Origin: a virus | Taxonomy: Duplodnaviria; Caudoviricetes | Reading direction: 5' to 3' (one strand) | DNA: 29,308 nucleotides | IMG/VR virus record: IMGVR_UViG_3300020599_000116 | Location: 1-29,308 of that record | In this document: in pieces, positions 1,926 to 26,298 of the stretch | How the letters are laid out: every line of letters begins with the position of its first letter | Numbering within the stretch: position 1 is the first letter of the stretch | The notes under the pieces: model-generated | What the model saw: the letters and a program-made list of their open reading frames with translations, nothing else | What the model was told of the DNA's origin: nothing | Database searches by the model: none | Translations under genes and position numbers: made by a program

Positions 1926-2960
1926 ATGCAAAAATTAGGATCAATGAAATACCAGGTGGAAAGTGTGCTCAATGTCATTAACTATATCGGTCAGTCCAAG
2001 CATGAAGCGAAGAAGAAGATCGGTGGCAGCAATAAAGTGACCGGTATTTACAGCATCAAATATTTTCGAAAGGTCTTGGGGAGCTGCATCCTTTTTGCTC
2101 AGTATGCCAGGCGCGAATTTGGTGTGAAGAGTATTTTTGATCTAAAGCCAGAACATCATGCAGCTTACATTCATTGGTTACAAGGTCAACGGGTTACCAA
2201 CGGTTATTTAACCAATGTGGAAAGCCATTTGCTGAAGCTCCAAACCGCCATGAGATTGATTTCTGAGAAAAACCACCGAAAGCCTGTCACCTTTATGCAG
2301 GAGCGTTTAATTGACTGGAGGAAAAAGGAGATGCCGAAGGATCGGAGCTACACCCAGGAGGAAATCGATAAATTAGAAAGTCACATGTCAAAACGAGTGG
2401 CTACTGCCATGCGTCTGTCCGTGAACCTTGGGTTTCGGACGGTCACAATTTGTAATATCCGAGTGGAACACGTAGTTACCCAGGAGGATGGAAGTCTACG
2501 AATTGAAATTCCGGACGGTAAGGGGATCACCAAAGGCGGACGTTTTCTATACCTGAATGTACCCTCTTCCTACGTTCCAGAATTGCTTGATTTGATTAAA
2601 AACAAAGGGCCAAAGGATAAAATACTCCCACTCAAAGAAAACACGCTCAGACAGGGCTTAAAACGCGCCTGTGAAGCTTCTGGTGTTGAGTCTGCCGGAT
2701 TTCATGGATTCAGACACACATATGCAAGAAGGAGATTAGAACAAATTATGGGGGATCGATTTTCTGAGGGGAAAATAATGATTGATTATATCTTAAAAAA
2801 CAGGGAGCGCGGCCGAAGAATGGATGACGGAATATCGAAAGATGCCATGGATCCCGACCGCCAATTGTTTGGGTGGGTGCAAGATTGCGTGAACATTGTT
2901 CACGGGGAGTTGGGCCATGGGAAAAGTCGTTGGGCACTGGTGGCGGTTTATATGTCATAA
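1926..2960 (+). CDS. Tyrosine recombinase/integrase (catalytic Tyr at the extreme C-terminus)
   Basis: Catalytic set R (LGFR), K (TKGGR), HxxR (FHGFRHTYA), H (ELGH) and Y (AVYMS); GGAGG RBS. Confidence 0.9.
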   Translation: MQKLGSMKYQVESVLNVINYIGQSKHEAKKKIGGSNKVTGIYSIKYFRKVLGSCILFAQYARREFGVKSIFDLKPEHHAAYIHWLQGQRVTNGYLTNVESHLLKLQTAMRLISEKNHRKPVTFMQERLIDWRKKEMPKDRSYTQEEIDKLESHMSKRVATAMRLSVNLGFRTVTICNIRVEHVVTQEDGSLRIEIPDGKGITKGGRFLYLNVPSSYVPELLDLIKNKGPKDKILPLKENTLRQGLKRACEASGVESAGFHGFRHTYARRRLEQIMGDRFSEGKIMIDYILKNRERGRRMDDGISKDAMDPDRQLFGWVQDCVNIVHGELGHGKSRWALVAVYMS

Positions 2961-3291
2961 TACATAAAGCCTATAGGATTTTTTTGGTAAAAGGAGCTGG
3001 CATAGATGTGGATTTAAATAAAGCTTTATAAAATGTATATCGTATGCATTGAATTGGGGATAACGCACCTATTTATTTCATAATCACTCTATTTTACGAA
3101 ATTATCTAGATGTGCCTTTTCCCTAAAAATCAAGTATTGTTAAGCTTTGTGGCGTTTACCTATTAGGTTGCTTATGATTCTATATTATGCAAAATTTATG
3201 CATGATCTAAATCCGCATTATATCAAGGATTGTGTTTTCCAGTGAATGAATAAAAATCTGCATAAAATATCCATGGTGGAGAAGCTCATCC

Positions 3292-3969
3292 ATGGAAAAC
3301 AGGCTAGAAGGAGCAAGTGATTCCGTGAAACAAGAGGATTTTGAACGTCGTTTAATAAATTGGCTGATGATAGCTTTTTGGTTAGTTTTAGATATTGCTC
3401 TTATACCTTTTATGTTAATGTACTTCTTTCCAAATCAAGCATCGTTCGTCGGTGATGTCTTCACCTGGACAGGGGCTATTATAGGTGGAGGACTCACTTT
3501 GGTTGGGGTGAGGTATACTTTAAACCGCCAGGCAAAAGAAAGATTTATTGATGTGTTTCCTGTAAAACTAAAAAATTTAGATTTAATAACTGAGCGGTTT
3601 GAACATATCTTAAACAGCAATCGCCTTTTGGAGTTTAGGAATAGCAATGTTGATCCTATACCGGATTTAATCAAAACAATAAAAGAGATGTTAAATTACT
3701 CAATAGATGTTGATGGAACAGTCTACACCCTTGTAAAACATTTTGAAGAAGAAGTTATAAATGTTGGGCGTACGTTGAAAGAACCCAGATATAACTATGT
3801 GGAAGACACTAAGCAGATGGGGCTATGGTCTGGTTATACGGATGAATCGCGTGCAGCTCGAGAAGAATTGTCCGAAGAAGTAAAAGAAGATATTAGAGAT
3901 AGATTGAATAAGTTAGCTAGATATCGAGATCAAATCCAACTTAAATATGTTAAATATACAAATGAATAA
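3292..3969 (+). CDS. Hypothetical membrane protein (2 N-terminal TM helices plus a soluble helical domain)
   Basis: Hydrophobic segments at about aa 21-46 and 55-75 (GAIIGGGLTLVGV); 225-aa ORF. Confidence 0.7.
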   Translation: MENRLEGASDSVKQEDFERRLINWLMIAFWLVLDIALIPFMLMYFFPNQASFVGDVFTWTGAIIGGGLTLVGVRYTLNRQAKERFIDVFPVKLKNLDLITERFEHILNSNRLLEFRNSNVDPIPDLIKTIKEMLNYSIDVDGTVYTLVKHFEEEVINVGRTLKEPRYNYVEDTKQMGLWSGYTDESRAAREELSEEVKEDIRDRLNKLARYRDQIQLKYVKYTNE

Positions 3970-3993
3970 AATTTTGTGTAAAGGCGTGAAATC

Positions 3994-4713
3994 ATGATGG
4001 ATTTTTTGCCCGGTATCCCTTCAGACGGGACGCCAGAAGCAGTTGCTTTTTGGATTTCTTTTTGGGCTGCTATGTATTCCGGGATTCTCTACAGTATAGG
4101 GACCGGTCTTTTTGTTGGGCTGGCCGTTTGGTTTGTTCAACTCAAAGTGGAGAAACAGAGAATGCGTAATGGGTTTGATCGGGAACTTGCGATCCTAAAA
4201 GAACGCGTAAGAGCTATTATTCATAAAGAAGATTCGTTAAATATTACCAACGCAAAAAGGTCTGTCCCCGTTGTTGCACAAGAAATAATGGACTTATTAT
4301 TAAATTATCCCGTCGATCTGTGGTTGGAAATGCTACCAAAAAGAAAGAACTTTTTAATACTGTTGAAAAATATTCAACAATCAGTTTCTGAATTTGAAAT
4401 TTCCGCTGAAAAACTAGATACAATATTAGGTAATTCAATCCGAAGGTATAATGCATCAATTGATAGGACAGGTGAATTAAACGCTAGTATTGACATTTCT
4501 TACGCGATTGGAAGAATTCATAACTCTGATCCAGATCATATCATCCCCTGGATTAATATGCCTTTAGGTTCTAAAGAGAAGCTCGAAGAACGTTATCAGA
4601 TAGTCATGGATAATCCAGATTTGAAGGAAAGTAGTCAACGATATTTGGATTGCAGAGAACAAATTTTATCGTGGATTGAGGCAATTAAGAACGAATTAAA
4701 TATAAAGAAATAA
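3994..4713 (+). CDS. Hypothetical membrane-anchored protein
   Basis: N-terminal hydrophobic segment (FWISFWAAMYSGILYSIGTGLFVGLAVWFV); 239-aa ORF followed by a terminator. Confidence 0.7.
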   Translation: MMDFLPGIPSDGTPEAVAFWISFWAAMYSGILYSIGTGLFVGLAVWFVQLKVEKQRMRNGFDRELAILKERVRAIIHKEDSLNITNAKRSVPVVAQEIMDLLLNYPVDLWLEMLPKRKNFLILLKNIQQSVSEFEISAEKLDTILGNSIRRYNASIDRTGELNASIDISYAIGRIHNSDPDHIIPWINMPLGSKEKLEERYQIVMDNPDLKESSQRYLDCREQILSWIEAIKNELNIKK

Positions 4714-4736
4714 GCCAGGGAGGAATCCCCGGCTTA
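4711..4736. terminator. Bidirectional intrinsic terminator
   Basis: TAAGCCaGGG..CCCcGGCTTA stem between convergent genes, with A/T tails on both sides. Confidence 0.7.
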
Positions 4737-5813
4737 TTTTTTAGGCTCAAGTTTAGCAATGAATTCAGATACGATCCCGGTTTCTTCCGCGATCTGTTCA
4801 ACGGTTTTTCCTTCTTCAAAGAGTTGGATCACTCTGTCCTGATTTCGCTTCAATGCTCTACGGTTTCGCTGATTATAGGCATTTTCACAGTTGCTTTTAT
4901 TCTTGCCAAATGGCGGCGGGCAGAACTTCTGACGGTTATCTCGTACAGGGAAAATGGAGTGATTGCAACCTGGATTCAAGCAGCGACGAAATTCCACTCC
5001 TCCTATAACCGCTTGTTGGAATTGCCACCAGGCTGTATCAAGCGGAGTGGCGAATTCTATAGCCGGTACAAATTGACCATCCACATCTTGCATGGCTGGG
5101 TAGACCCCGGAGAAATTAGAATTGATTAAATACTGGAGATACCTACGAGCCATGATATAGGGATCAATCTTGTCGTAGTTGTGGTATTCTTTCACATCCA
5201 ACGTAAAATAAAAGTGAAAAACATTCGGCGCAATACCGATAGAGTTCATTGCTCGTTTTAGACGTTTGTCTTTTTCAATTTCAGATGAACTATAACGATG
5301 GTACTTTCGTGTACTTTGCAATACATCGTTAGAAATTTCCTCTATTTTACCTGCTGGAACATGCCCGGTTTGAACTACTTCCCATATTTCAATGGCTTCT
5401 TTCAAATCAGCAATCGATCGGGCGCAAGATATGGCCAAATCCTCTATGATGCCACGCGTTTTATAATCCTCTACAAACTCTCTTCCTTCCTTCATGGTCG
5501 TTTCATTTTTGTAGGATGCTCCTAACAATCCGAAGCGTTTAAAAAACTCTTGCAGATCCGCCTCGTTATCTATATCTAGTTTGGATATCTCCATAAATAA
5601 GTTATCAGCATCTAAAGGGTTGTAGGTACTTACTGGACCCTTTTTTATGCTCTCCTGCTTGACTTTATAAACCCCTTCATTCATTTCATACTCACTAAAT
5701 ACTTTAAACCGTGTTAAACAATACGGTTTGACTAAGGTATTCTTGGGCCCCTTTGTATCGAGCATAAATTCATCCTCCTCACGTTTCTTCGGTATGACTA
5801 AGACATATCCCAC
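4734..5813 (-). CDS. Putative regulator with C-terminal Cys zinc-finger (CGNR-like) and HTH
   Basis: RRCLNPGC..RQKFC..SNC..RNRR Cys cluster followed by a KTVEQIAEETGI HTH. Divergent from an XRE gene, as in satellite regulatory switches. Confidence 0.6.
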   Translation of the reverse strand: MGYVLVIPKKREEDEFMLDTKGPKNTLVKPYCLTRFKVFSEYEMNEGVYKVKQESIKKGPVSTYNPLDADNLFMEISKLDIDNEADLQEFFKRFGLLGASYKNETTMKEGREFVEDYKTRGIIEDLAISCARSIADLKEAIEIWEVVQTGHVPAGKIEEISNDVLQSTRKYHRYSSSEIEKDKRLKRAMNSIGIAPNVFHFYFTLDVKEYHNYDKIDPYIMARRYLQYLINSNFSGVYPAMQDVDGQFVPAIEFATPLDTAWWQFQQAVIGGVEFRRCLNPGCNHSIFPVRDNRQKFCPPPFGKNKSNCENAYNQRNRRALKRNQDRVIQLFEEGKTVEQIAEETGIVSEFIAKLEPKK

Positions 5814-5864
5814 TAGTTTTTACACCGCCTTTTGGTGACGTGTTAAAAGTATCCGTACTAAAAC

Positions 5865-5904
5865 TTCACATATTTAGGATAGTGCTTTACACTGAAATTG
5901 TCAA
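5865..5904. promoter_or_regulatory. Overlapping divergent sigma-A promoters
   Basis: Minus strand: TTGACA(5904-5899)-17-TATCCT(5881-5876). Plus strand: TTCACA(5865-70)-17-TACACT(5888-93). Confidence 0.65.
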
Positions 5905-5958
5905 ACAGTAAATGCCATTTGTTGTTTGATTTAAAAACAGAAAAAGGAGGGAGTAAAG

Positions 5959-6186
5959 ATGCTGCAAATGCGGATTATCCGAGTTATGAAAGGTTGGAGT
6001 ATCCGAGAAGTAGCGGATAGGACAGGCATCAATAAATCCAATCTATCCCTCATTGAGCGGGGGATGTTCCCCATTTATCCGGGATGGAGGAAGCGTCTGG
6101 CGGAAGTGTTTCAAGTTCCAGAGTCCGTGCTTTTTGAGAAAGTGAACAGCGAAGAAATCATCGATGCGATGGAAGCAACAGTGTAA
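5959..6186 (+). CDS. XRE/Cro-family HTH regulator
   Basis: R..KGWSIREVADRTGINKSNLSLIERG HTH motif; AGGAGG RBS. Confidence 0.9.
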   Translation: MLQMRIIRVMKGWSIREVADRTGINKSNLSLIERGMFPIYPGWRKRLAEVFQVPESVLFEKVNSEEIIDAMEATV

Positions 6187-6339
6187 ATAATATGCTCTTT
6201 GAAAACTGAATAGAGAGGCTGGCTTGAGCCTTTGAAGGCGGTATGACTCCGTTAAAGAAGCGACTTCCGAGAGGATAAGCGAAAACACCAAATAGTTTAG
6301 GTGATGAAAAGTCAAATACATCTAGAAGGGAGGGAGAAT

Positions 6340-8493
6340 GTGGAAGACAAAGAAAAGCTGCCCCAAGAGGAGCAGCCCATAACCCGAGATTCACTTGGTT
6401 TTATTATACCAAAAAATCAACTACTGAAAACTCTGGACCGTTACTTTCCGAGTTCGGAAAAGCAAAAGAAAATCATCAAGCTTAGGGGATATTCTTCAGC
6501 TAACAAGGAAACGAACGAGGCGAAACGATATAGCACCGCCAAGCAGCCAATGGGTAAAGAGTGGCAGGATGTAGATCAACCCGGGCTGTCTCACGAGGAA
6601 ATCAATAACTGGACCAATCAGGGCGGCTGGATCGGGATGGTAATCCCGGATGGTTACGACCTCATAGATATTGACGATCCGCAGGAGGGTGAACTGATTT
6701 ACCAGGCATTAAAAGGAGAGGGGTTTCAGTTTCATGCCATACGGACTCCAAATGGGTATCAATTCTTTTTCCGTAGTACCGGGAAACTGAAAAGGCAGAA
6801 TGCCAAAGTTTTAATGGCAGGAGGCTTTGTAGGGGACTACCGACTAGCAGGAAAAGGGCAGATTGTTTTCCCGACTGAGGGGACGCCAGGGCGCTACTGG
6901 ATACATACAGCTAAGAAAGAACTATCTAAAACGCCTATCATGTTCGAGTTTTTGAAAAACATAGGAAAAAAAGATAGACCTTTCCCCATCCCAGTTAACG
7001 AGGGAAGCCGTGATAATACCCTTTATTCCCATGCTTGTAGGCTTGTCGAATTTGGCTATAAGGAAAAGGATATTAAGTCCGTATGTCAATTCCTCAACCA
7101 GTATTTTTTCGAGCCATCTTTGACTGATTTAGAGTTTCAAAAGACTGTAAAAAGTGCCTTTCAGCAAAAGCCAAGCGGGAGAGATTATAGCGTTTCAACC
7201 TTGAAAGAGGATTTTGGATCCGTTTCATGGGGTCATTTTTTTTTCGATGATCAATTCATCCCCATGCTTTTGGTGGAATGGTTTTTGAAGGAATATCACT
7301 TCTTCACTATGGCGGGTAGGCTATATGTCTACCAGGATGGAGTATATAAACCAATCGGTGAGGAGTTTGTCAAAAAGAAAGCCATTGAGGTATTGGGGAT
7401 AAAAGCCAAAAAGAGCAGGGTTGAGGAAACGGTCTACTTGATCAAAAGTCAAACCGTGGTTCAGCCAAGTCAAGTGAACCCAAATCCTCGGCTAATCAAT
7501 TTGCTAAATGGTTTTTTTGATATGGATGAACTAGAACTTAAACCCCATGACCCAAGCATATTAAGCACCATTCAAATCCCGGTTAAATATGATCGATACG
7601 CCAAATGCCCCACCATTCAAAGATTTATCAGCGAGATCATGCCGGGGGATTGTGTGAACTTGATTTATGAATTTGCAGGGTATTCCCTTGTTCCCCAAGT
7701 GGGTTATGACAAAGCCTTTATGCTTTATGGGAGTGGTGGAAACGGAAAGGGAACATTAATCAATCTCCTTTCCCGGTTTATCGGAGAGGAGAACGCCAGC
7801 AGCATCAGCCTTCAAGATATGACAGACAACCGATTCAGGAAAGCAGAGATTTTTGGAAGGCTCATCAACGTTTATGCCGATCTACCCGCCAGGGCGGTTC
7901 TGGATGGGGCAGACTTCAAAATGATGGTTTCAGGCGACAAGATGACCGCAGAACGAAAGAACTGTGATCCATTCGAGTTTAGACCCTTTGCAAAGCATAT
8001 CTTTTCAGCGAACCAACTACCAAAGGGAGAGAATACCGAAGCGTTCTTTGATCGATGGATTGTCATTCCTTTCCCTCACAAGTTTAGGGGATCAGGGAAA
8101 GGAGATAAGAATCTGATCGATAAAATGACAACACCGGAGGAATTAAGTGGTTTTTTCAACCTTGCCATAGATGGGCTATGGAGACTAGAAATGCAGAATG
8201 GTTTTAGTGAATCGGAGACCGTCAACCGGATGGTAGGCGAATACCGCAAAGAAAGTGATAGTGTGGCAGGCTTTATCGATGAGTGCTGCACGATTAAACC
8301 GGAGGTATGGGAGTACAAACAAGGCCTTTATAGGGAATATGACAAATGGTGTCAGGAGATGGGATTCAGACCTGTTAGCAGTATTAAATTCAATCAACGC
8401 CTTAAAGAGATTGTACCAACAGTTTTGGAAGAAAAAGAAAAAGGCGGTAAACGGAGATGGAAAGGGATTTGTGTTCCATCAGAATTTTTGTAA
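6340..8493 (+). CDS. Bifunctional primase-polymerase / D5(P4-family) SF3 helicase
   Basis: Prim-pol motifs (LIDID, RTPNGYQFFF), primase-C (EGSRDNTLYS), D5_N (INLLNGFFD..LKPHDP), Walker A GSGGNGKG and motif C FSANQLP. The GTG start at 6340 follows a GGAGGGAG RBS (track start 6301). Confidence 0.92.
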   Translation: MEDKEKLPQEEQPITRDSLGFIIPKNQLLKTLDRYFPSSEKQKKIIKLRGYSSANKETNEAKRYSTAKQPMGKEWQDVDQPGLSHEEINNWTNQGGWIGMVIPDGYDLIDIDDPQEGELIYQALKGEGFQFHAIRTPNGYQFFFRSTGKLKRQNAKVLMAGGFVGDYRLAGKGQIVFPTEGTPGRYWIHTAKKELSKTPIMFEFLKNIGKKDRPFPIPVNEGSRDNTLYSHACRLVEFGYKEKDIKSVCQFLNQYFFEPSLTDLEFQKTVKSAFQQKPSGRDYSVSTLKEDFGSVSWGHFFFDDQFIPMLLVEWFLKEYHFFTMAGRLYVYQDGVYKPIGEEFVKKKAIEVLGIKAKKSRVEETVYLIKSQTVVQPSQVNPNPRLINLLNGFFDMDELELKPHDPSILSTIQIPVKYDRYAKCPTIQRFISEIMPGDCVNLIYEFAGYSLVPQVGYDKAFMLYGSGGNGKGTLINLLSRFIGEENASSISLQDMTDNRFRKAEIFGRLINVYADLPARAVLDGADFKMMVSGDKMTAERKNCDPFEFRPFAKHIFSANQLPKGENTEAFFDRWIVIPFPHKFRGSGKGDKNLIDKMTTPEELSGFFNLAIDGLWRLEMQNGFSESETVNRMVGEYRKESDSVAGFIDECCTIKPEVWEYKQGLYREYDKWCQEMGFRPVSSIKFNQRLKEIVPTVLEEKEKGGKRRWKGICVPSEFL

Positions 8494-8494
8494 G

Positions 8495-8746
8495 GTACCC
8501 AGACTTGAACCCAGAAAGTACCCACAGTGTACCCAGACTTTTTCTAGGTATATCAAGGCTGTACCCAGAGTACCCAGACTTTTTCTATTAACTTGATGAA
8601 AAAAATAGAAGTTAGTAGAGAGAGTAATAGAAATAAAAAATATAAGAGTAAGTGAAAAAAGTCCGGGAACTCTGGGTACCTCAGATGTATCAAGGGCTGA
8701 AGCCTTCTAAAGTCTGGGTACAGTCCGGGTACCAAGTCTGGGTACC
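8495..8746. repeat. Iteron replication origin (satellite-type ori)
   Basis: GTACCCAGA(CTT) repeats at 8495, 8529, 8561 and 8570 face inverted copies at 8671, 8710, 8722 and 8734 across an AT-rich core (~8580-8660), directly after the primase-helicase gene. Confidence 0.85.
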
Positions 8747-8767
8747 AATCAAAAAGGAGTTGAATAT

Positions 8768-8941
8768 ATGAAAGGCGTCAAAATATTTGTGGCTGAAGAT
8801 ACAGCAACCTTGGAAGAAGAAATCGAAAGGGAGTTAGAGATGTTTGGTCTATCAGCGCATGATGTGAAGATGTACTTCCCTAGAGATGTGGACGGTCACA
8901 TTAGGCACCTGATAGCTGTGGTCATAACAGAGGAGGCATAA
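8768..8941 (+). CDS. Hypothetical protein, 57 aa (MKGVKIFVAEDTATLEEEIERELEMFG...), not in the ORF track
   Basis: AAGGAG RBS at 8754-59; open to TAA at 8939-41; followed directly by the next gene. Confidence 0.65.
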   Translation: MKGVKIFVAEDTATLEEEIERELEMFGLSAHDVKMYFPRDVDGHIRHLIAVVITEEA

Positions 8942-8945
8942 CCTA

Positions 8946-9245
8946 TTGGATCGATGTGTTTACTGTAAAAAGGAAATTCCCAAAGGTGCCACGAGAATCA
9001 TGACTATTGACGATGATCTGATATCCATCATTCATTGCTGCTTGAAATGCGATAGGAAACAAAATCAGAAGGCGAGGCGGTTGTTTATTGGTCGAAAGAG
9101 GCATCCAAGAGATCGGTTTGATATTGTTCCGCACCAAGGGAAGTGCGTGATATGTGATTCCATCACCCATTCGGTCTACGTGAGGATGGACTTATTCATA
9201 TGCAGTGAGAACTGCAAAAACAAGGCTTTGGATTACCGTAGATAA
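8946..9245 (+). CDS. Cys-rich (zinc-binding) hypothetical protein
   Basis: Paired CxxC motifs (CVYC, CLKC, CVIC, CSENC); GAGGAGG RBS. Confidence 0.6.
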   Translation: MDRCVYCKKEIPKGATRIMTIDDDLISIIHCCLKCDRKQNQKARRLFIGRKRHPRDRFDIVPHQGKCVICDSITHSVYVRMDLFICSENCKNKALDYRR

Positions 9246-9405
9246 TGGCTGAAGAGTGAGCGCAGAAAATTTGATAGCTAATATACCTACTTGAAAGGAG
9301 GTGAAGATAGCGGCTTTGTGTTTCTTTACAAAGAAGTAGACAAGGGAGCTTAGGAGATTAAAGCGGGGGCGCAAATGACGCGCTCCTACCCTTCCCTTGA
9401 ACAAT

Positions 9406-9565
9406 GGGTCCTTCTACGGATTTATTTTTTTTGAGGGTCTGCGAGCGCCCGATTTTTGGCTAGATACAAATAAAAAAAGTTAGTTCCGTTTCCGTTTTAT
9501 GACACACGCCAAAAATTCGGCTTCATTTAGTGGCCGATCAAGAATGCCGAAAAAAGCGGAAACGG
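9406..9565 (+). other. Lambda-like cos packaging site (cosQ-cosN-cosB)
   Basis: GGGTCCT (lambda cosQ) at 9406-12. Thirty bp after its start lies GGTCTGCGAGCG-CCCGATTTTTGGCTA, resembling lambda GGGCGGCGACCT-CGCGGGTTTTCGCTA. R-like inverted boxes CGTTTCCGTT (9487-96) and CGGAAACG (9557-64) follow, directly upstream of the Nu1-like gene. Confidence 0.75.
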
Positions 9566-9603
9566 TGACTTGATTGAGTACCGTTTAAAAAGGAGGTAGT
9601 GGT

Positions 9604-10086
9604 GTGGACTACATTGTAACCACAAACCAGCTTGGAGAAGTCCTCGGTGTGGCTGATTCCTACATACGGCGATTAGAACGAGAGGGTATTTTGCAGAAGG
9701 TTAGTCGGGGGAAATTCGACGTCCGAGTAAATGTTCAAAGATTTTTGCAGTATAAAGCAAGTATTCACGAAGTTGAGGACCAAGAAATTGACTACAACCG
9801 TGAAAAAGCTTTGCATGAACATGCCAAGCGCCGGATTGCGGAACTGGATCTGGCAGAGAGGGAGGATCAGCTCATTGAGGTTGATGAAGTTTGCCGAGAG
9901 CTTACGAAAATGATCAGTGTTACAAAAACTCGGTTTTTGTCCCTCCCTTCAAAATTAGCGCCTATGTTGCAGTTTGAAAACAACATCGCAGCTATTAACG
10001 AGATTCTTCGGAAGGAAATCTATGCCTGCTTGCAAGAGTTATCCAATCTATACGCAAAGGAGACTGAGGTCGAGGTTGGAAAATAA
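9604..10086 (+). CDS. terS: Terminase small subunit, lambda Nu1-like
   Basis: N-terminal wHTH (VTTNQLGEVLGV..YIRRLEREG..GKFDV..VQRFLQY), coiled coil EKA..E.AKRRIAELDLAE, and RFLSLPSKLAP..EIYACLQELS; AGGAGGT RBS. Confidence 0.85.
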   Translation: MDYIVTTNQLGEVLGVADSYIRRLEREGILQKVSRGKFDVRVNVQRFLQYKASIHEVEDQEIDYNREKALHEHAKRRIAELDLAEREDQLIEVDEVCRELTKMISVTKTRFLSLPSKLAPMLQFENNIAAINEILRKEIYACLQELSNLYAKETEVEVGK

Positions 10087-10252
10087 TGAAATTGAACCTC
10101 TTTTTGAAACATTTAATGAAAATCAATAACGTCTGTCAGAATTTTATTTTTGACAGGTGGTTACAAAGGGAATTTTATGGCTTTCACGTTTAATCAAAAA
10201 AAGTTGTAAAAACAGTACATCCTTAAAATCAAACTAATGGAGGAATAAAACG

Positions 10253-10561
10253 ATGCAAATTACATTAACCAAACCGTTATCGATAGACGGACAGACCCAT
10301 ACAAAGCTTGAATTGAACCTGGAAAACTTAACAGGGTATGACATGATAAAAGCTGAGCAAGATGCGATGGTCTTTGGTGATAAAAGTGAAAACGTGTTGT
10401 TCTCAAGTACAGGAGTGGCCATTATTGCTGCAAAAGCATCCGGACTAAAACCGGAAGATATCTTTCAAACCTCAGCACCTGATTTCATGGTGATAACGAA
10501 TACGGTACGGAATTTTTTATTCGGGTGGGCCTTGCTAATGGGGATGCAGTCAGAAGTTTAA
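10253..10561 (+). CDS. Phage tail assembly chaperone (Mu gp41 / P2 E-like, short form)
   Basis: LTKPLSIDG..L.L.LENLTG.DM..AE and A.DF..IT..VRNFL pattern; directly precedes the tape measure gene; GGAGG RBS. Confidence 0.85.
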   Translation: MQITLTKPLSIDGQTHTKLELNLENLTGYDMIKAEQDAMVFGDKSENVLFSSTGVAIIAAKASGLKPEDIFQTSAPDFMVITNTVRNFLFGWALLMGMQSEV

Positions 10562-10680
10562 GAAAAACATTCTTAGCAATGGCCCGGAACACTTTTACTT
10601 CGATTGAGTTTTGGATCAAAATGCCGCTAGTCGATTTCTTAGATTGGCTTCAGATGTCGGTAGAAAAAGGTGAGAACTAA
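10253..10680 (+). CDS. Tail assembly chaperone long form (G-T/E-E' type) via programmed -1 frameshift
   Basis: Slippery heptamer T TTT TTA at 10513-10519. The -1 frame is open to TAA at 10678-80 (..LRKTFLAMARNTFTSIEFWIKMPLVDFLDWLQ..), and that stop overlaps the TMP ATG. Confidence 0.8.
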
Positions 10681-12779
10681 TGTCTCGTAAAGTTCATGAA
10701 ATATCATTTGCCATTGGTGCTAAGATGGCTAGTAATTTCAAAAGCACGTTTAACTTTGCCTCAGCACAAATGAAGGGCATTAAGGGTGATATCCGCGACC
10801 TTAATAATCAATATATTAAAGGTGCAATATCTGTTCAGAAATACCAGGAAGAGCACAGGAGATTAACAAATCAACTGGAGCGAGCACAGCGCGCTCAAAC
10901 CAAATTAAATCAGTCCATGAAAAATCAATACCGGACAGGTACGGGCGGTGTATTTGGTGGAGGTTCTGCACTAGGCAGCCTTAGCCGGGTATCGTTGGCT
11001 GGTATGGGTGCAGTCACCGCATTAGGCCCTGCTTTTTATCTTGGTGCATCCTTGAAAAAAGCCATAGATTATGAGTCTCAACTATCAAGCATCCAGGCTC
11101 TGACAGGTTTAACTAACGAGCAGATGAATGCAATGAATAAATTAGCATTAAAGTTGGGAGCCGATACAAAATATAGTGCGCTTGAAGCAGCCCAAGGAAT
11201 TGAAGAGTTATTAAAATCCGGCCTGACTCCGGCTACAGTACAGACAGGAGCATTGGAGGCAGCCCTCAATTTAGCTACTGCAGGTGGATTAGACTTAGCG
11301 GCAGCAGCGGAAATAATGGCTGATGCTCTTAACGGATTTAGAAAAGATGGGATGAGCGCTGCTGATGCGGCCAACATTTTAGCAGGCGCGGCAAATGCTT
11401 CCTCCACAAACGTTCAGCAAATCAAATACGGGTTAGCGGCTGTAGGGCCTGTGGCAGAGGGGATCGGAATCACGTTCAAAGAAGTCAACGCAGTACTGGC
11501 AGCATTTAGTAATAACATGCTTAAAGGAAGCGATGCCGGGACATCATTGAAGACGTTCCTTGCTAACGTCCAGCCGGGAACTAAAAAGGCAACGCAACTC
11601 TTTGAAAAGTACGGACTGATCAACAAAAAGACAGGTGAAAATATACTGTTTTCAAATGGACAACTAAAGGATTTGGCAGAAGTATCTGGAATTCTACAAA
11701 AGAATTTCAAAAAACTCACTGACCAGCAGCGTTCCTCAGCATTCTTTGAAATGTTTGGATCTGACGCTGTACGTGCCGCCAACATTCTTTTCAAAGAGGG
11801 AGCAGAAGGGATCCGAAATGTCTACCAGGAAATGAGCAAGGTCACTGCACTTGATGTAGCCAAGCAGAAGATGGATAATGCGGCGGGGGCGGTGGAACAG
11901 TTCAAGGGTGCGTTAGAGACCATGCAGATATCGGCTCTCACCCCTACTTTGCCACTGGTTAAAGATTTGGCTCTCATGATGGCTGACATGGCAGAGAAAC
12001 ACACACCCGCATTAACGGCTAAATTAGAAAATCTTTCTGATGCTTTACGGTATTTGTTTGACCCATATCCTCAGGAAACGAAAGATCCATTTGCAATTAA
12101 ATCTGATTCAACGTCAACGTTTGAAAACTATTTAAATGGACGTCAAGCAGTGTTAGAACATTTTCAGGATAAGATACCTGGATTCGGTGATCGGCTTAGC
12201 ATATTAATCCATCAAGCAATGGATAGATTGGCTCAATCTTATAAGGATTGGCTGAATAGCGGAGGACAAGAGAAGATCGATGCGGCAATATCGGATGTGC
12301 TTCGTTTTGTAACAGAATCAGTAGAAAAAAACCTTCCAGCTTTCACAGAATTGGGTGGATCTATAGCTGCATCTATTGCGATGGGAATGGGGAATGGGCT
12401 TTGGGATCTTATCCCGAATTGGGCCAAACCGAGCTATACAGGTTGGAGAGAGGAAAGTCCTAAAAAATATGCCCGTGGAGGCTTTGTAAACAGCCCTCAT
12501 TTGGGAATGGTGGGTGAAGCAGGCCCGGAAGCAATCATTCCTATGGATGGTTCAGCGAGGGCTAAAGCATTATGGCAACGTGCCGGGCAAAGATTAGGAA
12601 TGGGGGCCGGATCTGGAGATTCGTCGATTACCATTCATGCTCCAATCACCGTCAACTTCCAAGGGAATGCAGATGCTAACTCGGCCAATCAATCCGTGGA
12701 TACGATAGAAAAACGCTTTAATAGCTTGATAAGGGATTATCAAAACCAACAAAAGAGAACATCATTCGGTGCATTTTAA
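10680..12779 (+). CDS. Phage tail tape measure protein (TP901-family core), 699 aa
   Basis: YESQLSSIQA..LGADTKYSALEAAQGIEEL..G..GSDAGTSLK core; C-terminal YARGGFV..MVGEAGPEAIIP motif; Ala/Gly-rich helical composition. Confidence 0.92.
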   Translation: MSRKVHEISFAIGAKMASNFKSTFNFASAQMKGIKGDIRDLNNQYIKGAISVQKYQEEHRRLTNQLERAQRAQTKLNQSMKNQYRTGTGGVFGGGSALGSLSRVSLAGMGAVTALGPAFYLGASLKKAIDYESQLSSIQALTGLTNEQMNAMNKLALKLGADTKYSALEAAQGIEELLKSGLTPATVQTGALEAALNLATAGGLDLAAAAEIMADALNGFRKDGMSAADAANILAGAANASSTNVQQIKYGLAAVGPVAEGIGITFKEVNAVLAAFSNNMLKGSDAGTSLKTFLANVQPGTKKATQLFEKYGLINKKTGENILFSNGQLKDLAEVSGILQKNFKKLTDQQRSSAFFEMFGSDAVRAANILFKEGAEGIRNVYQEMSKVTALDVAKQKMDNAAGAVEQFKGALETMQISALTPTLPLVKDLALMMADMAEKHTPALTAKLENLSDALRYLFDPYPQETKDPFAIKSDSTSTFENYLNGRQAVLEHFQDKIPGFGDRLSILIHQAMDRLAQSYKDWLNSGGQEKIDAAISDVLRFVTESVEKNLPAFTELGGSIAASIAMGMGNGLWDLIPNWAKPSYTGWREESPKKYARGGFVNSPHLGMVGEAGPEAIIPMDGSARAKALWQRAGQRLGMGAGSGDSSITIHAPITVNFQGNADANSANQSVDTIEKRFNSLIRDYQNQQKRTSFGAF

Positions 12780-12861
12780 AATTAATAAGACTGTAACAGC
12801 GTTGAAATATTTACCAATTAAAATAAAGCCATCAACCCCCTCAGAACAATATATAAGTGAT

Positions 12862-12893
12862 GCCTACCAGCTAAATGGTGGGCTTATTTTTTT
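12862..12893 (+). terminator. Intrinsic terminator after the tape measure gene
   Basis: GCCTACCA..TGGTGGGC stem followed by a T-tract. Confidence 0.65.
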
Positions 12894-12946
12894 GTTTATG
12901 AATTTGTTTTTATGCCTAAACTAGCGGTAAAAGTTCAGGTGATCTA

Positions 12947-13366
12947 ATGCTAATCGAATACATCGTATTTGGTTTTTTTCTTGCTATTGGCACAATATTC
13001 TACTTCCTCCGAAAACCCGAGCCTGCCATCATCTCGCCAGAAACTGCAGAACGAATGAAGTGTCAAAGCCCTATAGAAAGACGATTGTACGACACATTAA
13101 TCTTTACTGGGTACAGCCCACGAACCCAGGTACCTTGTGGCCACTTCAGTATTGACATTGTCCTCCCTGGAAGAATTGCGATTGAATGTGATGGAGCTGC
13201 TTATCATTCATCCCCAAAACAGAAGAGTCACGATCGGAAGAAGGATCAGTATCTTCGAAAGAACGGTTATACAGTTTTGCGATTTACCGGGAGGCAGATC
13301 AACGGAAACATGAAACAGGTGCTAAAACGAATCGACAGGACTGTGTCTAAAGTGCAGGCTAACTAA
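12947..13366 (+). CDS. DUF559/Vsr-like endonuclease-fold protein with N-terminal TM anchor
   Basis: SPIERRL..Q..G.F.IDI..IAIECDG..YH..HDRKKD.YL..GYTVLRFTG; first 20 aa are hydrophobic. Confidence 0.85.
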   Translation: MLIEYIVFGFFLAIGTIFYFLRKPEPAIISPETAERMKCQSPIERRLYDTLIFTGYSPRTQVPCGHFSIDIVLPGRIAIECDGAAYHSSPKQKSHDRKKDQYLRKNGYTVLRFTGRQINGNMKQVLKRIDRTVSKVQAN

Positions 13367-13727
13367 CTTATACTTTTTTATTGGACTTGCAACTAGGACA
13401 AACGCCCAGGCATACGTTAATAGTGTAATAGGCAGTGTGAACGCAAGGTATGAACGTCGAGTCTGCCCTATGTGTTTTAGGTTACACGCCTCGATAACAC
13501 TTTGAAAGTTGGTGATATGACTGACTTTGTAGTGGTTTTTAAATTATAGTGAACATGCTCAAAAACTTTTATCAAAGTTGGAAGGTGGGGCTTTTTTTAC
13601 CCTTCCTTTTACCATCGTCCCGGCCAGCTATTTTTGAGCACGCCAACCGGACGAATGATGATTGCTCATCCGTCTATTTATAGTATCGCCAAGTTTGGAG
13701 AGACTTATACATCGAGGTGAAAAAAAT

Positions 13728-14924
13728 ATGTTGGACCCGTTAAGTTTAGTGGCCGCTCATGGACTAAAGGTTATCGGTGGGTATGTGGTGGGTCATATCG
13801 CTTGGAAGCTACGCCCCCGCAAAGAAAACTTCCCGGAGTTAATGCGGTTAACCTTTATACGAGCCGGGCTCTGTGTCAAGATCGATAACGGAAAAACCAA
13901 GCGGGAAGCAACTCCTATGTTGAGCAACTTTGCACAGACCCCATGGGGATTTGTCTTTCAGTACCGTTTGATTCCCGGTTTGAGCATTCAACAATTCATA
14001 GACAAGAAAAACATCCTGGATGCCGCTTTTAATGGGGAGTGCAATATTTACGGAGAAGGTAACGAATTGACCATTGAAATCATGCGTGTACCCATGCCGG
14101 ATCTGGAATACTTCGACATAGAGAAGATCCGAGAAAAGGAAGATGGCAAGGCTATCCCGTTTCCTCTTGGGATGACCCGTAAAGGGATTGAAGTGATCGA
14201 CTTTGCCAAGGCCCCACACGGAGTGAATGCTGGGGAGACCGGGGGCGGTAAGTCCGTTTTCCTTCGGCAGTTTTTAACCACCGTGGCCCTGCTCAGGCCC
14301 CCGGAGCAAGTAACCATGACTTTGATTGATTTGAAATATGGCATGGAGCTTTCCTTGTTTGAACACCTGCCACACGTTGAACGATTTGTGGAGGATGCCA
14401 AGGACGTTCAAAAAGCCCTTGATTCCGTTAACAAGATGATGGATGAACGCGGGCGCCTATTCCGTGCTTCCGGGGTGAGAAAGATCGAACAGTATAACGC
14501 CCTCTGTTCAACAGAGCCCGTACCTTATCACCTTCTCATTATTGATGAATTAGCCGAAATAAAAGACCTAGATTCCATAGAACGGATTGGGAAGCTAGGC
14601 AGGGCCCTTGGCATTCATATGCTGCTATGTACTCAACGCCCTTCAGCCAAAATTTTGGATGGCGAGATAAAAGCGAATTGCCCGCTTAAAATCTGTTTCC
14701 AAGTCATTAACGGAGTGAACAGCCGCATTATCCTAGACAACGAAAACGCCAAATACCTTCCACCTATTCCCGGCCGCGCCCTGGTGCAATTCAAGGGTGA
14801 GCGGCAAATTCAAGCCCTACTCTTAGAAGAAAACCACGCAGATGTACTCCTGAAACCCATCCGAAAGGAGAAAAACCAAGATGCTATTGAAAGACCGCGA
14901 GATCGACATTTTAACTACTGTTAG
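13728..14924 (+). CDS. FtsK/SpoIIIE-family ATPase (DNA translocase/coupling protein)
   Basis: Walker A GETGGGKS, LIDLK, Walker B LLIIDELAE, GRALGIHMLLCTQRP and PGRA. The ATG at 13728 follows GAGGTG (track start 13662). Confidence 0.9.
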   Translation: MLDPLSLVAAHGLKVIGGYVVGHIAWKLRPRKENFPELMRLTFIRAGLCVKIDNGKTKREATPMLSNFAQTPWGFVFQYRLIPGLSIQQFIDKKNILDAAFNGECNIYGEGNELTIEIMRVPMPDLEYFDIEKIREKEDGKAIPFPLGMTRKGIEVIDFAKAPHGVNAGETGGGKSVFLRQFLTTVALLRPPEQVTMTLIDLKYGMELSLFEHLPHVERFVEDAKDVQKALDSVNKMMDERGRLFRASGVRKIEQYNALCSTEPVPYHLLIIDELAEIKDLDSIERIGKLGRALGIHMLLCTQRPSAKILDGEIKANCPLKICFQVINGVNSRIILDNENAKYLPPIPGRALVQFKGERQIQALLLEENHADVLLKPIRKEKNQDAIERPRDRHFNYC

Positions 14925-15558
14925 CCACCTGCGTTTCATGACTACCCAACAAATTCACGCCATTCATGGCTATAGTGGTAAGCATGGTGACAATGTAACC
15001 AGGCGACTACTCAAGCAATTAGTAGACAACGGACTATTGAAGTCTTGGCAACCGGATAAATACTCAAGCAAGATTTTTTATTTAACCAAAGCCGGAGCCA
15101 AAGAGGTGGAGTTCTACCACGGCTATGACAACGTGAGAACCTTCCAGAAATCCAACCAAACACTACACCATGTCCTTGTAACGGAGGCTTATGTGCAGTT
15201 ACGGAGAGCAGATGGAGGCAAGGTGCGTCGCTTTGCGATCCATGCCAAGGTGGGCGAGATTGAGGCGGATTCCTTTGTGGAGTATCAGATGGGTAAAACC
15301 ATTAAGCTGCTGTTCCTGGAGGTTGACCGGGCCACCGAGACCCTTCACGCCATCAAGGAGAAGTTGGACCACTATAAAGCAGTATACGATGCCGGTGGCT
15401 ATCAAAAGAAGTTTGGAGTTTTCCCGACTGTTTGCTTTATCACCACCACAGACGCACGACAGCGGTCGCTGTGGCGCGTTTTGAACACTTACCCTTATAG
15501 AAGTAAGGTTGTAACGGAAAAAGAGCTTAGAACTAATCCTCGCGACTTAATTGAGTAA
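14881..15558 (+). CDS. Replication-relaxation family protein
   Basis: N-terminal wHTH (FMTTQQI..RRLLKQL..FYLTKAG), HH.LV, ADSF..LFLEVDRATE..KL..Y. Overlaps the ftsK end, a known gene pairing. Confidence 0.8.
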   Translation: MLLKDREIDILTTVSHLRFMTTQQIHAIHGYSGKHGDNVTRRLLKQLVDNGLLKSWQPDKYSSKIFYLTKAGAKEVEFYHGYDNVRTFQKSNQTLHHVLVTEAYVQLRRADGGKVRRFAIHAKVGEIEADSFVEYQMGKTIKLLFLEVDRATETLHAIKEKLDHYKAVYDAGGYQKKFGVFPTVCFITTTDARQRSLWRVLNTYPYRSKVVTEKELRTNPRDLIE

Positions 15559-15845
15559 CCATTAGGGTACGTGTCTAACCCATGATATAAGGGTGACATT
15601 ACCCCATCAAATATACCGGGGCACCCGCCCTTTCAGATACCCCAAAATCATGCGAATACCCCTATTCATTAAAGCGATTCTGCAACGTTCCATCCTTCGG
15701 ATGGCAATTATAAGGGTTAACTATTAAAACAGAGAGATGGCCCTAATTAGGCGGATATTGAGGGGAATCCATTAAACAACTGCCTTTTTATTTTTGTTTT
15801 TGGATGTTAAACTCAAATCAAAAATAACGAGGTGGTGAACGTATA

Positions 15846-16559
15846 ATGAACGCATCCAAACAAGACCGAGTCTATTGGAATCGAGAGGTTGCAGAGAATT
15901 TAGGACTTGCAGACAGCACGCTTCGAAAGTGGTGTATTGCCATTGAAAAAAGCGGCTACACATTTTCAAAAGATGATCAAGGAAACCGTGCGTTCCACGA
16001 TCACGATTTAATCCTCTTGCGAAGGGTTCATGATTTAAATAAAACGAAGGGTGTTCGATTAGAGAACGCCATAAGTATGGTGTTTTCTAATCTTAATAAT
16101 GAAAATGATACCGATGGAACGACCCTCGTTCAGTCATCTAACGACCCTCGTTCTACATATTCACTCGTTCCTGAATCGTTCGATGAAAAGATGGAACAAA
16201 TACTTGAGGCCAATAGACAACTTGTAGAATATTTAAAATCACGGGATGAACAGATTATGAACGTGATGAAGGAAATGAACGAGGTTCGTTTGCAACTGGC
16301 AGCTTCTACAGTAGATCAAAAGCTAGAAGAGAGGCAGTCCCGGATCACGGAAATGATCACCATGGAGAGGGTAAAGGGGCAATTGAGGAAGGAAGCTTTG
16401 CACCAGTGGTCAACTAAACCAGAGGAAGAACGGATTAAGCGGACCGGGTTATTCGGCCTAAAAAAAGAAGAAGATCACGCAGCGCGTGACCGTTTTGTCC
16501 AGGACTATATAGACGCTCATTTGCCGGAACGTCTCGCCCAAGAATATGGAATGGAATGA
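15846..16559 (+). CDS. MerR-like HTH plus coiled-coil plasmid DNA-binding protein (DUF3967/RacA-like)
   Basis: REVAENLGLADSTLRKWC..EK.GY.F.KD..GNRAF; coiled-coil C-terminal half; GAGGTG RBS. Confidence 0.7.
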   Translation: MNASKQDRVYWNREVAENLGLADSTLRKWCIAIEKSGYTFSKDDQGNRAFHDHDLILLRRVHDLNKTKGVRLENAISMVFSNLNNENDTDGTTLVQSSNDPRSTYSLVPESFDEKMEQILEANRQLVEYLKSRDEQIMNVMKEMNEVRLQLAASTVDQKLEERQSRITEMITMERVKGQLRKEALHQWSTKPEEERIKRTGLFGLKKEEDHAARDRFVQDYIDAHLPERLAQEYGME

Positions 16560-22743: not shown

Positions 22744-23580
22744 ATGTCAAACGATAAAACAATGGTCAGGACGAGGAAAAACAGAGAGAATCCTTATGTG
22801 ATGCTTGATAAAACAGGTCTCCACGACCAACGTCTTTCGTGGAAAGCTAAAGGGTTACATGCTTATTTGATGAGTTTGCCGGATGATTGGACTATATACA
22901 TAACTGAATTAACTAAACACACAAAAGATGGACGGGACTCCACAAGAGCAGCATTTAAAGAATTAGAATTAGCCGGATATGTTACCAATGAAGCGATAAG
23001 AAATTCGAAGGGTCGTATTGAGAAATGGGAAAAGATCGTCTACGAGCAACCCTTGCATTGGGAACCGATTGAAAAGACTAAGAGTAAAAAGGTAAAGGAA
23101 CAGGAACCAGAAACGGAAAACCCGTATGTGGATCCAGAAACGGATTTTCCGGATCTGGAAAAACCACATCTGGACAATCCAGATCTGGAGAATCCAACAC
23201 TACTAATAAATAATAGTACTAATAATGATTTAACTAATAATGGTTGGTTGGGCGAGGTTACACCTTCGCAGAATAATCCGCCTTCCTCTGATCAAGCTTT
23301 GGCTTGGAATCTATTAAAAGATAACTGTGAACATCATGGAATTGATAAGGTGCAATCCTTTGAATTTTATAAGGTATGGCAGCATTATTACCCAGAGGCC
23401 CCAATCCCTATTGTGCTGGCTACAATCAGGGAACTGATGAATGATAAATGGACTCAAAAGAACGGTAAATGGACCGAGCTGGAATACAAAAATGTAACAG
23501 GGATATTCCATCACCGGATGAAGTCTTGGAGACAAATGGCTGCAGCCTATGAGGATGTGGATGGTTATGAAAATGGATAA
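22744..23580 (+). CDS. Phage/plasmid replication initiator-like protein (wHTH N-terminus, internal iteron linker)
   Basis: NPYV..D.RLSWKAKGL.AYLMSLPDDW.IY..EL..H..DG.DS..A.KELE.AGY, then a PxxENP repeat linker and LLINNSTNN; AGGAGG RBS. Confidence 0.75.
   Translation: MSNDKTMVRTRKNRENPYVMLDKTGLHDQRLSWKAKGLHAYLMSLPDDWTIYITELTKHTKDGRDSTRAAFKELELAGYVTNEAIRNSKGRIEKWEKIVYEQPLHWEPIEKTKSKKVKEQEPETENPYVDPETDFPDLEKPHLDNPDLENPTLLINNSTNNDLTNNGWLGEVTPSQNNPPSSDQALAWNLLKDNCEHHGIDKVQSFEFYKVWQHYYPEAPIPIVLATIRELMNDKWTQKNGKWTELEYKNVTGIFHHRMKSWRQMAAAYEDVDGYENG
23107..23196 (+). repeat. 15-bp-period intragenic repeats (probable origin iterons)
   Basis: CCAGAAACGGA x2, then CCGGATCTGGAAAAA / CCACATCTGGACAAT / CCAGATCTGGAGAAT, followed by an AT-rich run (~23200-23240). 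Confidence 0.65.
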
Positions 23581-26225: not shown

Positions 26226-26262
26226 GGGGTTCAGCCGAGATACGTGTAAAAATGGGTCATAG
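26226..26262 (+). repeat. Tn3 terminal inverted repeat (37 bp)
   Basis: Starts GGGG, is the perfect inverse of 1641-1677, and is preceded by the GGGGC TSD at 26221-25. Confidence 0.95.
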
Positions 26263-26298
26263 CGTGGATATTATTTCCAGTTTGTGACCCTGTTTGAT

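Follow-up and report, generated by a model that had tools for sequence, protein, structure and literature searches.

Phage satellites that encode a tape measure protein (TMP), the PLEs of Vibrio cholerae and the EPIPs of Mycolicibacterium aichiense, have already been published, as have satellite-plasmids, the Vibrio PISPs. The PLE TMP is present in virions and its deletion cuts transfer by 96–99.9%; in the part of that report drawn on here, chimeric tails are shown only for Vibrio PLEs, and the benefit to a satellite of encoding a TMP itself is called open (PMC12987554). EPIPs are helper-dependent, according to the section of their description used here (PMC12822802). The SatelliteFinder model for PICIs, more than 99.9% of which are chromosomal, forbids tail genes, as set out in the available part of that work (PMC10085698). 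Elements with tail genes are therefore likely to be undercounted and filed as broken prophages.

Here, we describe a circular element from a viral contig collection, in which the window (the whole stretch of DNA analysed) spans 29,308 nucleotides. Judging from sequence, it is probably a satellite-plasmid of Lily-type cos myophages, likely to redirect a helper terminase and to supply its own TMP and chaperones, like the Vibrio PLEs. A packaging site, a terminase small subunit (TerS) and tail-ruler genes, with no detectable head, tube or lysis genes, make a phage parasite likely. A preliminary description had proposed a satellite in the run 4734..12893. Its proposal is partly supported, by this gene content and by independent TerL-less elements elsewhere, and its gene run holds; the swapped region is wider (Table 1), and the plasmid backbone with its swappable slot had been overlooked. 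It had pointed to the TMP and tail assembly chaperone (TAC) of Vibrio PLEs, and had missed the published satellite-plasmids and TMP-carrying EPIPs.

Plasmid backbone and exchangeable slot

The window is a complete 29.2-kb circle with a 127-nt terminal repeat and is the sole contig of its record (G000). Contigs of run X1, possibly the source sample, span the junctions, and X3 and X5 contigs do so in part. This plasmid-like circle originates from soil. Its plasmid traits are the terminal repeat, a Rep protein, a recombinase, a DUF3967-like gene and a sister circle, and it looks like a plasmid rather than an island; no parA was found among its 36 ORFs. The recombinase is 36–39% identical to Bacillus plasmid recombinases; in two such plasmids, neither of which has the cassette, the recombinase and DUF3967 genes lie side by side. 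Searches with the recombinase matched only the sister and one chromosomal relative (47%), the latter without a cassette match.

The sister, G513, is a complete 20.9-kb circle with terminal repeats that has ten backbone blocks in common with the window (80–94% nucleotide identity). Its slot holds non-homologous content: a divergent regulator-like gene, a PF03864 capsid gene, a Rep-like protein, a PF05119 TerS and a TMP preceded by two ORFs that are at most putative chaperones. None of its unassigned ORFs is longer than 316 aa. The regulator-like genes of the two circles do not match each other directly, and each weakly matches the gene of a third element, L279 (for the window, a gene in the same position at E 7e-6); Atlas matches of the window's protein are unnamed clusters. 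The G513 cassette had no coverage in four runs, which says nothing either way. Within the window's slot, positions 3991-4713 are skipped in related X1 and X5 contigs. FtsK also lies downstream of the cassette in L279 and in another related element, L452; a terminase-large PHROG match (E 6e-11) was rejected as a secondary match inside the FtsK ATPase domain.

Table 1. Features of the window, with position, strand and supporting match
Feature	Position	Strand	Evidence or remark
Tyrosine recombinase, plasmid backbone, likely resolvase	1926..2960	+	PF00589; 96% to sister G513
Cassette region	2961..15624 (about)	.	No blastn block to G513 between 2958 and 15625
Two accessory ORFs	3292..4713	+	No Pfam, PHROG, NCBIfam or PADLOC match
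Regulator-like protein, Cys-rich C-terminal motif and HTH, divergent from rightward operon	4734..5765	-	Weak HTH_7
Small Xre/Cro-type HTH protein	5959..6186	+	PF01381 E 3e-7
P4-family primase-SF3 helicase	6340..8493	+	TIGR01613 E 5e-68; PriCT_1, D5_N, DUF5906
Origin-like cluster, putative function	8495..8745	.	GTACCCA, five direct and three inverted, flanking A-rich stretch
Two small ORFs (57 and 99 aa), candidate interference factors	8768..9245	+	No credible family match
Lily-type cos region	9403..9496	+	Upstream box conserved 9406-9414; predicted 12-nt 5' overhang 9436-9447
TerS, Nu1/Lily type	9604..10086	+	phrog_57 E 7e-30; 32% to Lily TerS
TAC, P2 E / Mu gp41 family	10253..10561	+	PF10109; phrog_3140 E 5e-20
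Slippery heptamer and -1 frame extension (TAC-T)	10513..10680	+	Stop overlaps TMP start
TMP, 699 aa	10680..12779	+	PF10145, TIGR01760; phrog_1533 E 9e-91
Terminator-like hairpin and T run	12862..12893	+	Terminator scan
DUF559 nuclease, FtsK/SpoIIIE and replication-relaxation genes, within swapped region	12947..15558	+	Pfam-type domain matches
MerR/DUF3967-like plasmid gene, first backbone gene past slot	15846..16559	+	Matched by 849 plasmid records
DnaD-like replication initiator, backbone	22744..23580	+	PHROG; C-terminal 111 aa 83% to sister
Tn3-family transposon (resolvase, hsp20)	26226..29308, on across origin to 1677	-	5-bp target duplication; not in sister

The two circles together point to hitch-hiking on phages as a trait that plasmids may carry in modular form. 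Tentatively, and at somewhat less than even odds, the two circles may belong to a family of Bacillota plasmids with a swappable 'helper adaptor' slot, each version of which joins a packaging-specificity module (cos or pac plus TerS) to a tape measure suited to a different phage class, such that cassette exchange switches the carrier phage. If this is true, tape-measure substitution would be common among Gram-positive satellites and hidden by detection models that forbid tail genes. It is far less probable that the cassette is an excisable satellite inside a plasmid, packaged alone without the backbone. The layout does resemble that of integrated elements (L279, L447-L451), and one circle carries two replication modules, but the slot has no second recombinase, the sole tyrosine recombinase being of a plasmid family. 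Of the 20 largest repeat families, none places a long direct repeat at the slot edges, and no joint across the slot appears among the matches listed from four runs.

Replication, packaging and tail genes of the cassette

A divergent gene pair that includes the Xre HTH gene may be a regulation module comparable to that of PICIs (AlpA, MerR or Stl); its leftward gene has no family assignment and is at most a candidate repressor. As described previously, purine-rich RBS-like sequences precede the ORFs; their positions make starts at 5765 (leftward ORF) and 6340 (primase) more likely than those first given. Eight of the window's 11 GTACCCA copies fall in the origin-like cluster. One primase relative, P0123, is 77% identical. 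No second cassette copy was found with primase relatives, which in viral contigs lie within elements read as filamentous-phage-like and capsid-forming; the seven Brevibacillaceae matches were viewed with 1.5 kb of context per side.

The cos region, recognized in the preliminary description, is borne out by its alignment to the first bases of phage Lily, which has a 12-bp 5' overhang (PMC6070908), and by its score of 43.2 bits in a profile built on 33 full-phage sites, whereas the best of 20 shuffles reached 11.7 bits. The TerS has its best relatives (48–49%) in full prophages, retains just 11 of 18 conserved columns, which places it 44th among 46, and forms a long branch in a quick tree, where the three TerS genes from elements without TerL fall in three separate places. 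A word search returned the window's own TerS alone, and domain-wise retargeting left no signal, the N-terminal, middle and C-terminal parts being 40, 57 and 43% identical to L270. Promoter prediction returned nothing for the spacer between terS and TAC.

The best relative of the TAC (60%) comes from a full prophage, and of the 26 TAC homologues that genome searches found, 25 follow sheath and tube genes, which counts against a satellite; support near the window in a FastTree phylogeny is weak. The preserved frameshift and coupled stop/start claimed earlier are both present: a slippery site (T TTT TTA, 10513-10519) is followed by 55 open -1 codons up to a TAATG overlap, and of 35 distinct TACs, 31, including that of the window, combine a TTTTTT slippery site with 40 or more open -1 codons. 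The TMP retains 163 of 176 conserved columns and both ends, with best relatives at 56–57%. Its length is ordinary beside the TMPs of full Lily-type phages (596–1349 aa) and of the full prophage with the closest TAC (705 aa), which speaks against the earlier suggestion that the element sets its own tail length and rules out a mini-TMP. The terminator scan is by itself no evidence, since it found 10 hairpins against 7.6 expected.

No likeness to TerL, portal, capsid, tube, sheath, baseplate or lysin genes was seen among the 36 ORFs, and none of 16 head, tail and lysis profiles (the gpW profile from one sequence) matched in six frames, where the TerS and TAC controls did; the lack of recognizable genes of these kinds, as first described, is thus confirmed. 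ORF domain searches and six-frame profiles found no capsid-morphogenesis or capsid-size gene.

Recurrence in other genomes and alternative origins

Elements with cos and TMP and without TerL, capsid or tube were found in at least seven other records, none of which has the window's exact gene set. One of 15 strict cos matches in viral contigs, L279, reads integrase-regulator-primase/helicase-cos-TMP-TerS without a TerL match. Across 401 Paenibacillaceae genomes, eight of 30 cos loci lack TerL; these are spread over six genomes, five of which have a TMP at cos and no TerL, portal, capsid, sheath or tube match. In one element (L009), cos immediately precedes TAC-TACfs-TMP; ARAGORN did not confirm a suspected tRNA at the end of L009. 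A looser cos pattern gave at least 119 loci (39 of about 650 bp or less) and no further TerL-less cos-TMP element, and scans of viral contigs with single proteins returned one distant locus for TMP and none for TerS. Independent cos/TMP elements thus exist, but no second example was found of the exact primase-cos-terS-TAC-TMP order proposed earlier, a point against the satellite reading. All close homologues found are from Bacillota. In the closest complete phages, pBstUI51 and Lily, a GpA-type TerL goes together with a lambda-like head and a contractile tail like that of P2, which matches the helper type that had been predicted.

Alternatively, a Lily-type phage-plasmid may have undergone two deletions (terL to tube, and baseplate to lysis), leaving unselected baggage on a replicating circle. 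Adding a Lily-sized head-tail region (about 10 kb) and baseplate-lysis genes (7–9 kb) to 24.5 kb restores 41–44 kb. Phages of this size are ordinary, so the circle would fit a phage-plasmid with deletions; this counts against a satellite, as do the divergent TerS, the ordinary TMP length and the misfit of the Tn3-bearing size. The divergent TerS is also in line with a remnant, and the phage-like replication genes and FtsK module of the backbone resemble those of full phage-plasmids (pBstUI51, NZ_CP062261). L452, with a TerS on a short branch, a ClpP fragment and a TMP, resembles such a derivative and suggests that similar gene sets can arise by deletion. Where terS ends, a short +1 frame could be a remnant of the terL 5' end; the sign is weak, as 157 of 58,534 window 13-mers reach the same score.

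We nevertheless consider a deletion origin unlikely. At this slot the sister backbone carries another, different cassette with TerS and TMP, so two lineages would need near-identical losses of gene classes, and the 16 missing genes have left no profile trace. The frames and slippery site are intact, so any loss would be recent: four frames (about 1010 codons) lack stops, and simulated neutral drift to 1% divergence leaves all four open in 32% of runs, drift to 5% in 1.3%. A near-identical full parent prophage, raised as a counter-explanation in the preliminary description, was yet not found among 240 TMP loci or in protein searches (best 56–60%). Moreover, the phages closest in TerS carry distant TMPs (24–26%). 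For its part, the satellite reading gains no support from dN/dS, which cannot isolate the time since capture because synonymous sites are saturated and no near homologues were found.

An interference role, which we regard as still less probable, would make TerS, TAC and TMP mainly decoys against helper packaging and tail assembly, shielding host and plasmid, with particle transfer minor. Defense at tail assembly is known from Rta, as presented in the excerpted source (PMC12987554); in several related islands cos is present two or three times, which could titrate terminase; no capsid-size gene was found; and the 29.2-kb size fits poorly. However, an element that is packaged would need just such a primase-origin module and a single, well-spaced cos, the TMP retains both ends and most conserved columns, and the unassigned ORFs match no PADLOC system.

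Proposed helper exploitation and comparison with known systems

For the favored satellite-plasmid, we envisage that the backbone Rep and recombinase maintain the circle as a plasmid. Helper growth would switch on the rightward operon, and the primase-helicase would amplify the circle from the repeats. The plasmid TerS may then pair with the helper's GpA-type TerL, leading to cutting at the plasmid's own cos, and its TAC, TAC-T and TMP could displace those of the helper in tail assembly, for which Vibrio PLEs are the precedent, and helper yield would suffer. The chimeric tails, altered DNA injection and poisoning of helper tail assembly suggested in the preliminary description may be among the consequences. 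Since no capsid-size gene was found, the simplest way to fill a head of normal size would be a dimer (49.1 kb) of the Tn3-free form (24,543 bp); the Tn3-bearing circle misfits a 45–51-kb head both as a monomer (29.2 kb) and as a dimer (58.4 kb). If the element and its relatives are satellites, they would take the own-TMP strategy into Gram-positive bacteria, to temperate phages with cos sites and onto plasmids. The question is testable, as Lily-type phages are culturable and cos-TMP islands occur in sequenced isolate genomes.

Like the window, the V. cholerae PLE bears TMP and TAC without tube or sheath, as far as the excerpt describes it; it is chromosomal, remodels capsids and parasitizes the lytic ICP1 (PMC12987554), whereas the window is plasmid-like, traces by homology to Bacillota and combines a frameshifted TAC with a cos and TerS of lambda/Lily type. 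The PISPs and cf-PISPs of Vibrio crassostreae are likewise episomal circles, in which plasmid functions are combined with hijacking genes of PICI type, TerS among them. In the portion of their description used here, PISPs carry capsid E and a protease, lack tail genes and are reported only in Vibrio (PMC13230959). The window has tail genes, and capsid E and a head protease were not found in it; the PF03864 gene (capsid E) is a PISP-like trait of the sister. EPIPs resemble the window in having TerS and TMP without holin or other tail genes, and differ in their 11-kb size, serine integrase, head-tail adaptor and stopper, and actinobacterial hosts, with no TAC listed in the part consulted (PMC12822802).

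The order of the PICI model, as partly excerpted, with regulator, primase-replicase and TerS (PMC10085698), recurs in the window, where the regulator is putative. Unlike a PICI, the window has TAC and TMP, no capsid-morphogenesis gene was found in it (such genes are often missing in Firmicutes), and it is a closed circle with a plasmid-family recombinase common to the sister and no shown integrase, although it may integrate in a host. Unlike in cf-PICIs and cf-PISPs, its own capsid, portal, TerL and head-tail genes were not found. Lily-type temperate phages (Lily, NC_028841; pBstUI51, NZ_CP064061), which unlike the window encode full head, tail and lysis modules, are the source family of its cos, TerS, TAC, TAC-T and TMP, and are its likely helper class.

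The circular molecule and its exchangeable slot

The window is one closed molecule, as its first 127 nt recur at its end; it is the sole contig of its genome record (G000) and forms a circle of 29,181 bp. A Tn3 transposon, flanked by a 5-bp target duplication, runs across the origin of the record, and without it the circle measures 24,543 bp. The best plasmid match to the transposase region reaches ~73% nt. The insertion is recent and has hsp20 on board. Parts of the window are present in ten metagenome runs from six studies (nine soil, one manure), at least half of its words in three of the ten, and the named close homologues of its proteins are all from Bacillota. In run X1, which may be the source sample, single contigs span the terS-TAC junction (tail assembly chaperone) and the end of the tape measure gene (TMP), and runs X3 and X5 partly bridge both. 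Contigs of X1 and X5 bypass the second accessory ORF and also diverge from the window in the first, indicating a related element with another accessory set.

That the cassette is a module, rather than a chance leftover, is best supported by comparison with a sister circle, G513 (20,917 bp, terminal repeats), found via the window's recombinase. Ten blocks are common to both circles at 80–94% nt, the Tn3 site is empty in G513, and nucleotide comparison gave no match to G513 between window positions 2958 and 15625. In G513 the slot is occupied by a regulator-like gene in divergent orientation, genes for a PF03864 capsid protein (capsid E), a winged-helix Rep-like protein and a PF05119 (P27-type) TerS, a TMP of 1063 aa that includes a lytic domain, and small unassigned ORFs. 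Nine G513 ORFs were scanned against PHROGs and the rest viewed, the unassigned ones all being at most 316 aa; the cos profile found no Lily-type cos in this circle. G513 is itself a candidate satellite-plasmid, one that would target another helper. In two Bacillus cereus plasmids, whose annotation is free of phage structural genes, a related recombinase adjoins a DUF3967 gene, which is the empty-slot order.

Coordinates of features in the window and the sister circle
Feature	Position	Remarks
Cassette	2961-15624	
Tn3 transposon	26226-29181 + 1-1677	
Second accessory ORF	3991-4713	skipped by X1 and X5 contigs
X1 contig, terS-TAC junction	6336-10494	
X1 contig, TMP end	11358-13723	
Hairpins	18946-18981; 21162-21197	36 nt, two identical copies, bracketing variable backbone block
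PemK-like gene	20365-21138	long N-terminal part; in variable backbone block
Hexamers CTGTCA...TGACAG	10133-10156	inverted; terS-TAC spacer; possible operator
Hexamers CTGTCA...TGACAG	25474-25494	inverted; near end of 25077 ORF; possible operator
G513, sister circle	L453:4919-14738 (L453/L461)	regulator-like, capsid, Rep-like, TerS, TMP

Gene content and recurrence of cos-TMP elements

Domain and family searches bore out the gene calls of the preliminary description, and its proposed cos can be aligned to the very start of the phage Lily genome, whose ends are described as having a 12-bp 5′ overhang (PMC6070908). The site scores 43.2 bits on a profile of 33 full-phage sites, with 20 shuffles reaching at most 11.7 bits, and is the only one of its kind across the window. 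The box upstream of it is presumably a match to lambda cosQ. The claimed TAC frameshift also held, the slippery site and open -1 frame being common to 31 of 35 distinct TACs, as did the absence of head, tail and lysis genes: 16 such profiles, made of homologues from fetched loci, gave no match in a six-frame search of the window, in which the controls, TerS and TAC, reached 152 and 100 bits. A separate X3 contig matches the window only in the cos region (9459-9497) before continuing into other sequence; it is another cos-bearing element of that sample, possibly a helper-type phage.

The search for similar synteny was answered in part: seven further records combine cos with TMP while lacking TerL and capsid, but TAC was found only in L009, a Desulfovirgula MAG locus where cos is directly followed by TAC, its -1 frame extension (TAC-T) and TMP; no TerS was found in that genome. 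Window-type TerS occurs in just two of the seven, L452 (with a ClpP fragment and TMP) and L279. The latter, a provirus record with integrase, regulator-like gene, primase-helicase, cos, TMP, coiled-coil gene, TerS and FtsK, is the exception among 15 strict cos matches in viral contigs, the other 14 entering terS-terL heads. Among 401 Paenibacillaceae genomes, the cos pattern occurs in 22, at 31 places; TerL is present at 22 of the 30 loci retrieved and absent from eight, which belong to six genomes. G328, G342, G458 and G399 contain islands headed by an integrase, with cos, a coiled-coil gene and a TMP of 905–1099 aa, where searches for TerL, portal, capsid, sheath and tube gave no match; the G399 island retains ClpP and gpD genes. 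G483 is represented by a 7.9-kb contig with TerS, ClpP fragment and TMP, and no TMP lies at the cos of G420. In satellite-like islands (L009, L447, L448, L449, L451), cos is present two or three times at a spacing of a few kb, and most of these islands share a coiled-coil gene of 200–290 aa that the window lacks.

TMP scans covered at least 244 sequences, and 52 of those listed had at most one structural marker. Ten of these were judged to be a different type of compact TMP island, five of them having a phBC6A51-like TerS; the remaining 42 comprise short contigs, phages whose genes lack labels, two ambiguous loci, L009 and the window itself. The compact islands (L006, L008, L012, L023, L026, L031, L035, L061, L083, L235) come from Brevibacillus, Paenibacillus and other Bacilli, often carry the phBC6A51-like TerS or an XkdR-like gene, share coiled-coil genes and are without head or tube markers. 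TAC is mostly a full-phage gene, with 25 of 26 genome matches sitting behind sheath and tube. The nearest viral-contig relatives of the window primase (33–36%) lie in 10–12-kb elements (L291-L294) that, from their small membrane proteins and assembly-ATPase-like gene, look like Gram-positive filamentous phages. In another viral contig, L300, the genes are unusually arranged, portal and head gene preceding a cos-like site that is followed by terS, terL and TMP, and its 13 kb contain no tail-tube marker.

Donor phages, selection and proposed packaging

The phage-plasmid pBstUI51 (NZ_CP064061) encodes a TerL of GpA type together with a lambda-like head and a contractile tail; its cos matches that of the window, and identities are 38% for TerS, 37% for TAC, 26% for TAC-T and 48% for TMP. 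Such Lily-type phages are the likely donor and helper class. Relative to known phages, the cassette is a mosaic: phages nearest in TerS (47–49%) have a TAC at 34–41% and a TMP at 24–26% or without match, the best TAC relative (60%) belongs to a full prophage whose TMP is 705 aa, and the best TMP relatives reach 56–57%. As full Lily-type TMPs span 596–1349 aa, the 699 aa of the window TMP are an ordinary length.

Divergence from the nearest relatives (dN 0.29–0.37, synonymous sites saturated or nearly so) mostly reflects older history. TMP retains 163 of its 176 conserved columns and ranks 19 of 26, like equally isolated rows; for TerS the figure is 11 of 18, at rank 44 of 46. In a substitution-only neutral simulation, the share of runs with all four frames still open fell from 32% at 1% divergence to 9% at 2% and 1.3% at 5%, so a phage remnant would have to be young. 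The sequence behind terS might, faintly, be a terL 5′ vestige.

The window element is real and probably a satellite-plasmid. Most likely, the circle would be maintained as a plasmid and amplified during growth of a Lily-type helper; its own TerS would act with the helper's TerL in cutting at its own cos, and delivery would proceed, as in PLEs, through a tail assembled with its own TMP and chaperones. PLE TMP is described in virions, and its deletion lowers transfer by 96–99.9% (PMC12987554). Size is the weak point of this packaging model, and no capsid-size gene was found in the window. Lambda cos packaging requires near-unit length. Lily-type genomes measure 44,952, 46,952, 48,929 and 51,094 bp, a range that includes a Tn3-free dimer (49.1 kb); the present Tn3-bearing form does not fit well.

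Relation to known satellites

Several of these traits are already known: TMP with TAC in PLEs, alongside predicted tmp genes in some cf-PICIs (PMC12987554), TerS with TMP in EPIPs (PMC12822802), and plasmid-borne satellites in Vibrio (PMC13230959). We found no report of a Bacillota satellite with TMP, or of such a satellite-plasmid, in a search of mostly open-access papers. The window element lacks defining features of PICIs, cf-PICIs and PISPs alike and is therefore not classed with any of them; it likely combines PLE-style tail hijacking with a PISP-style replicon.
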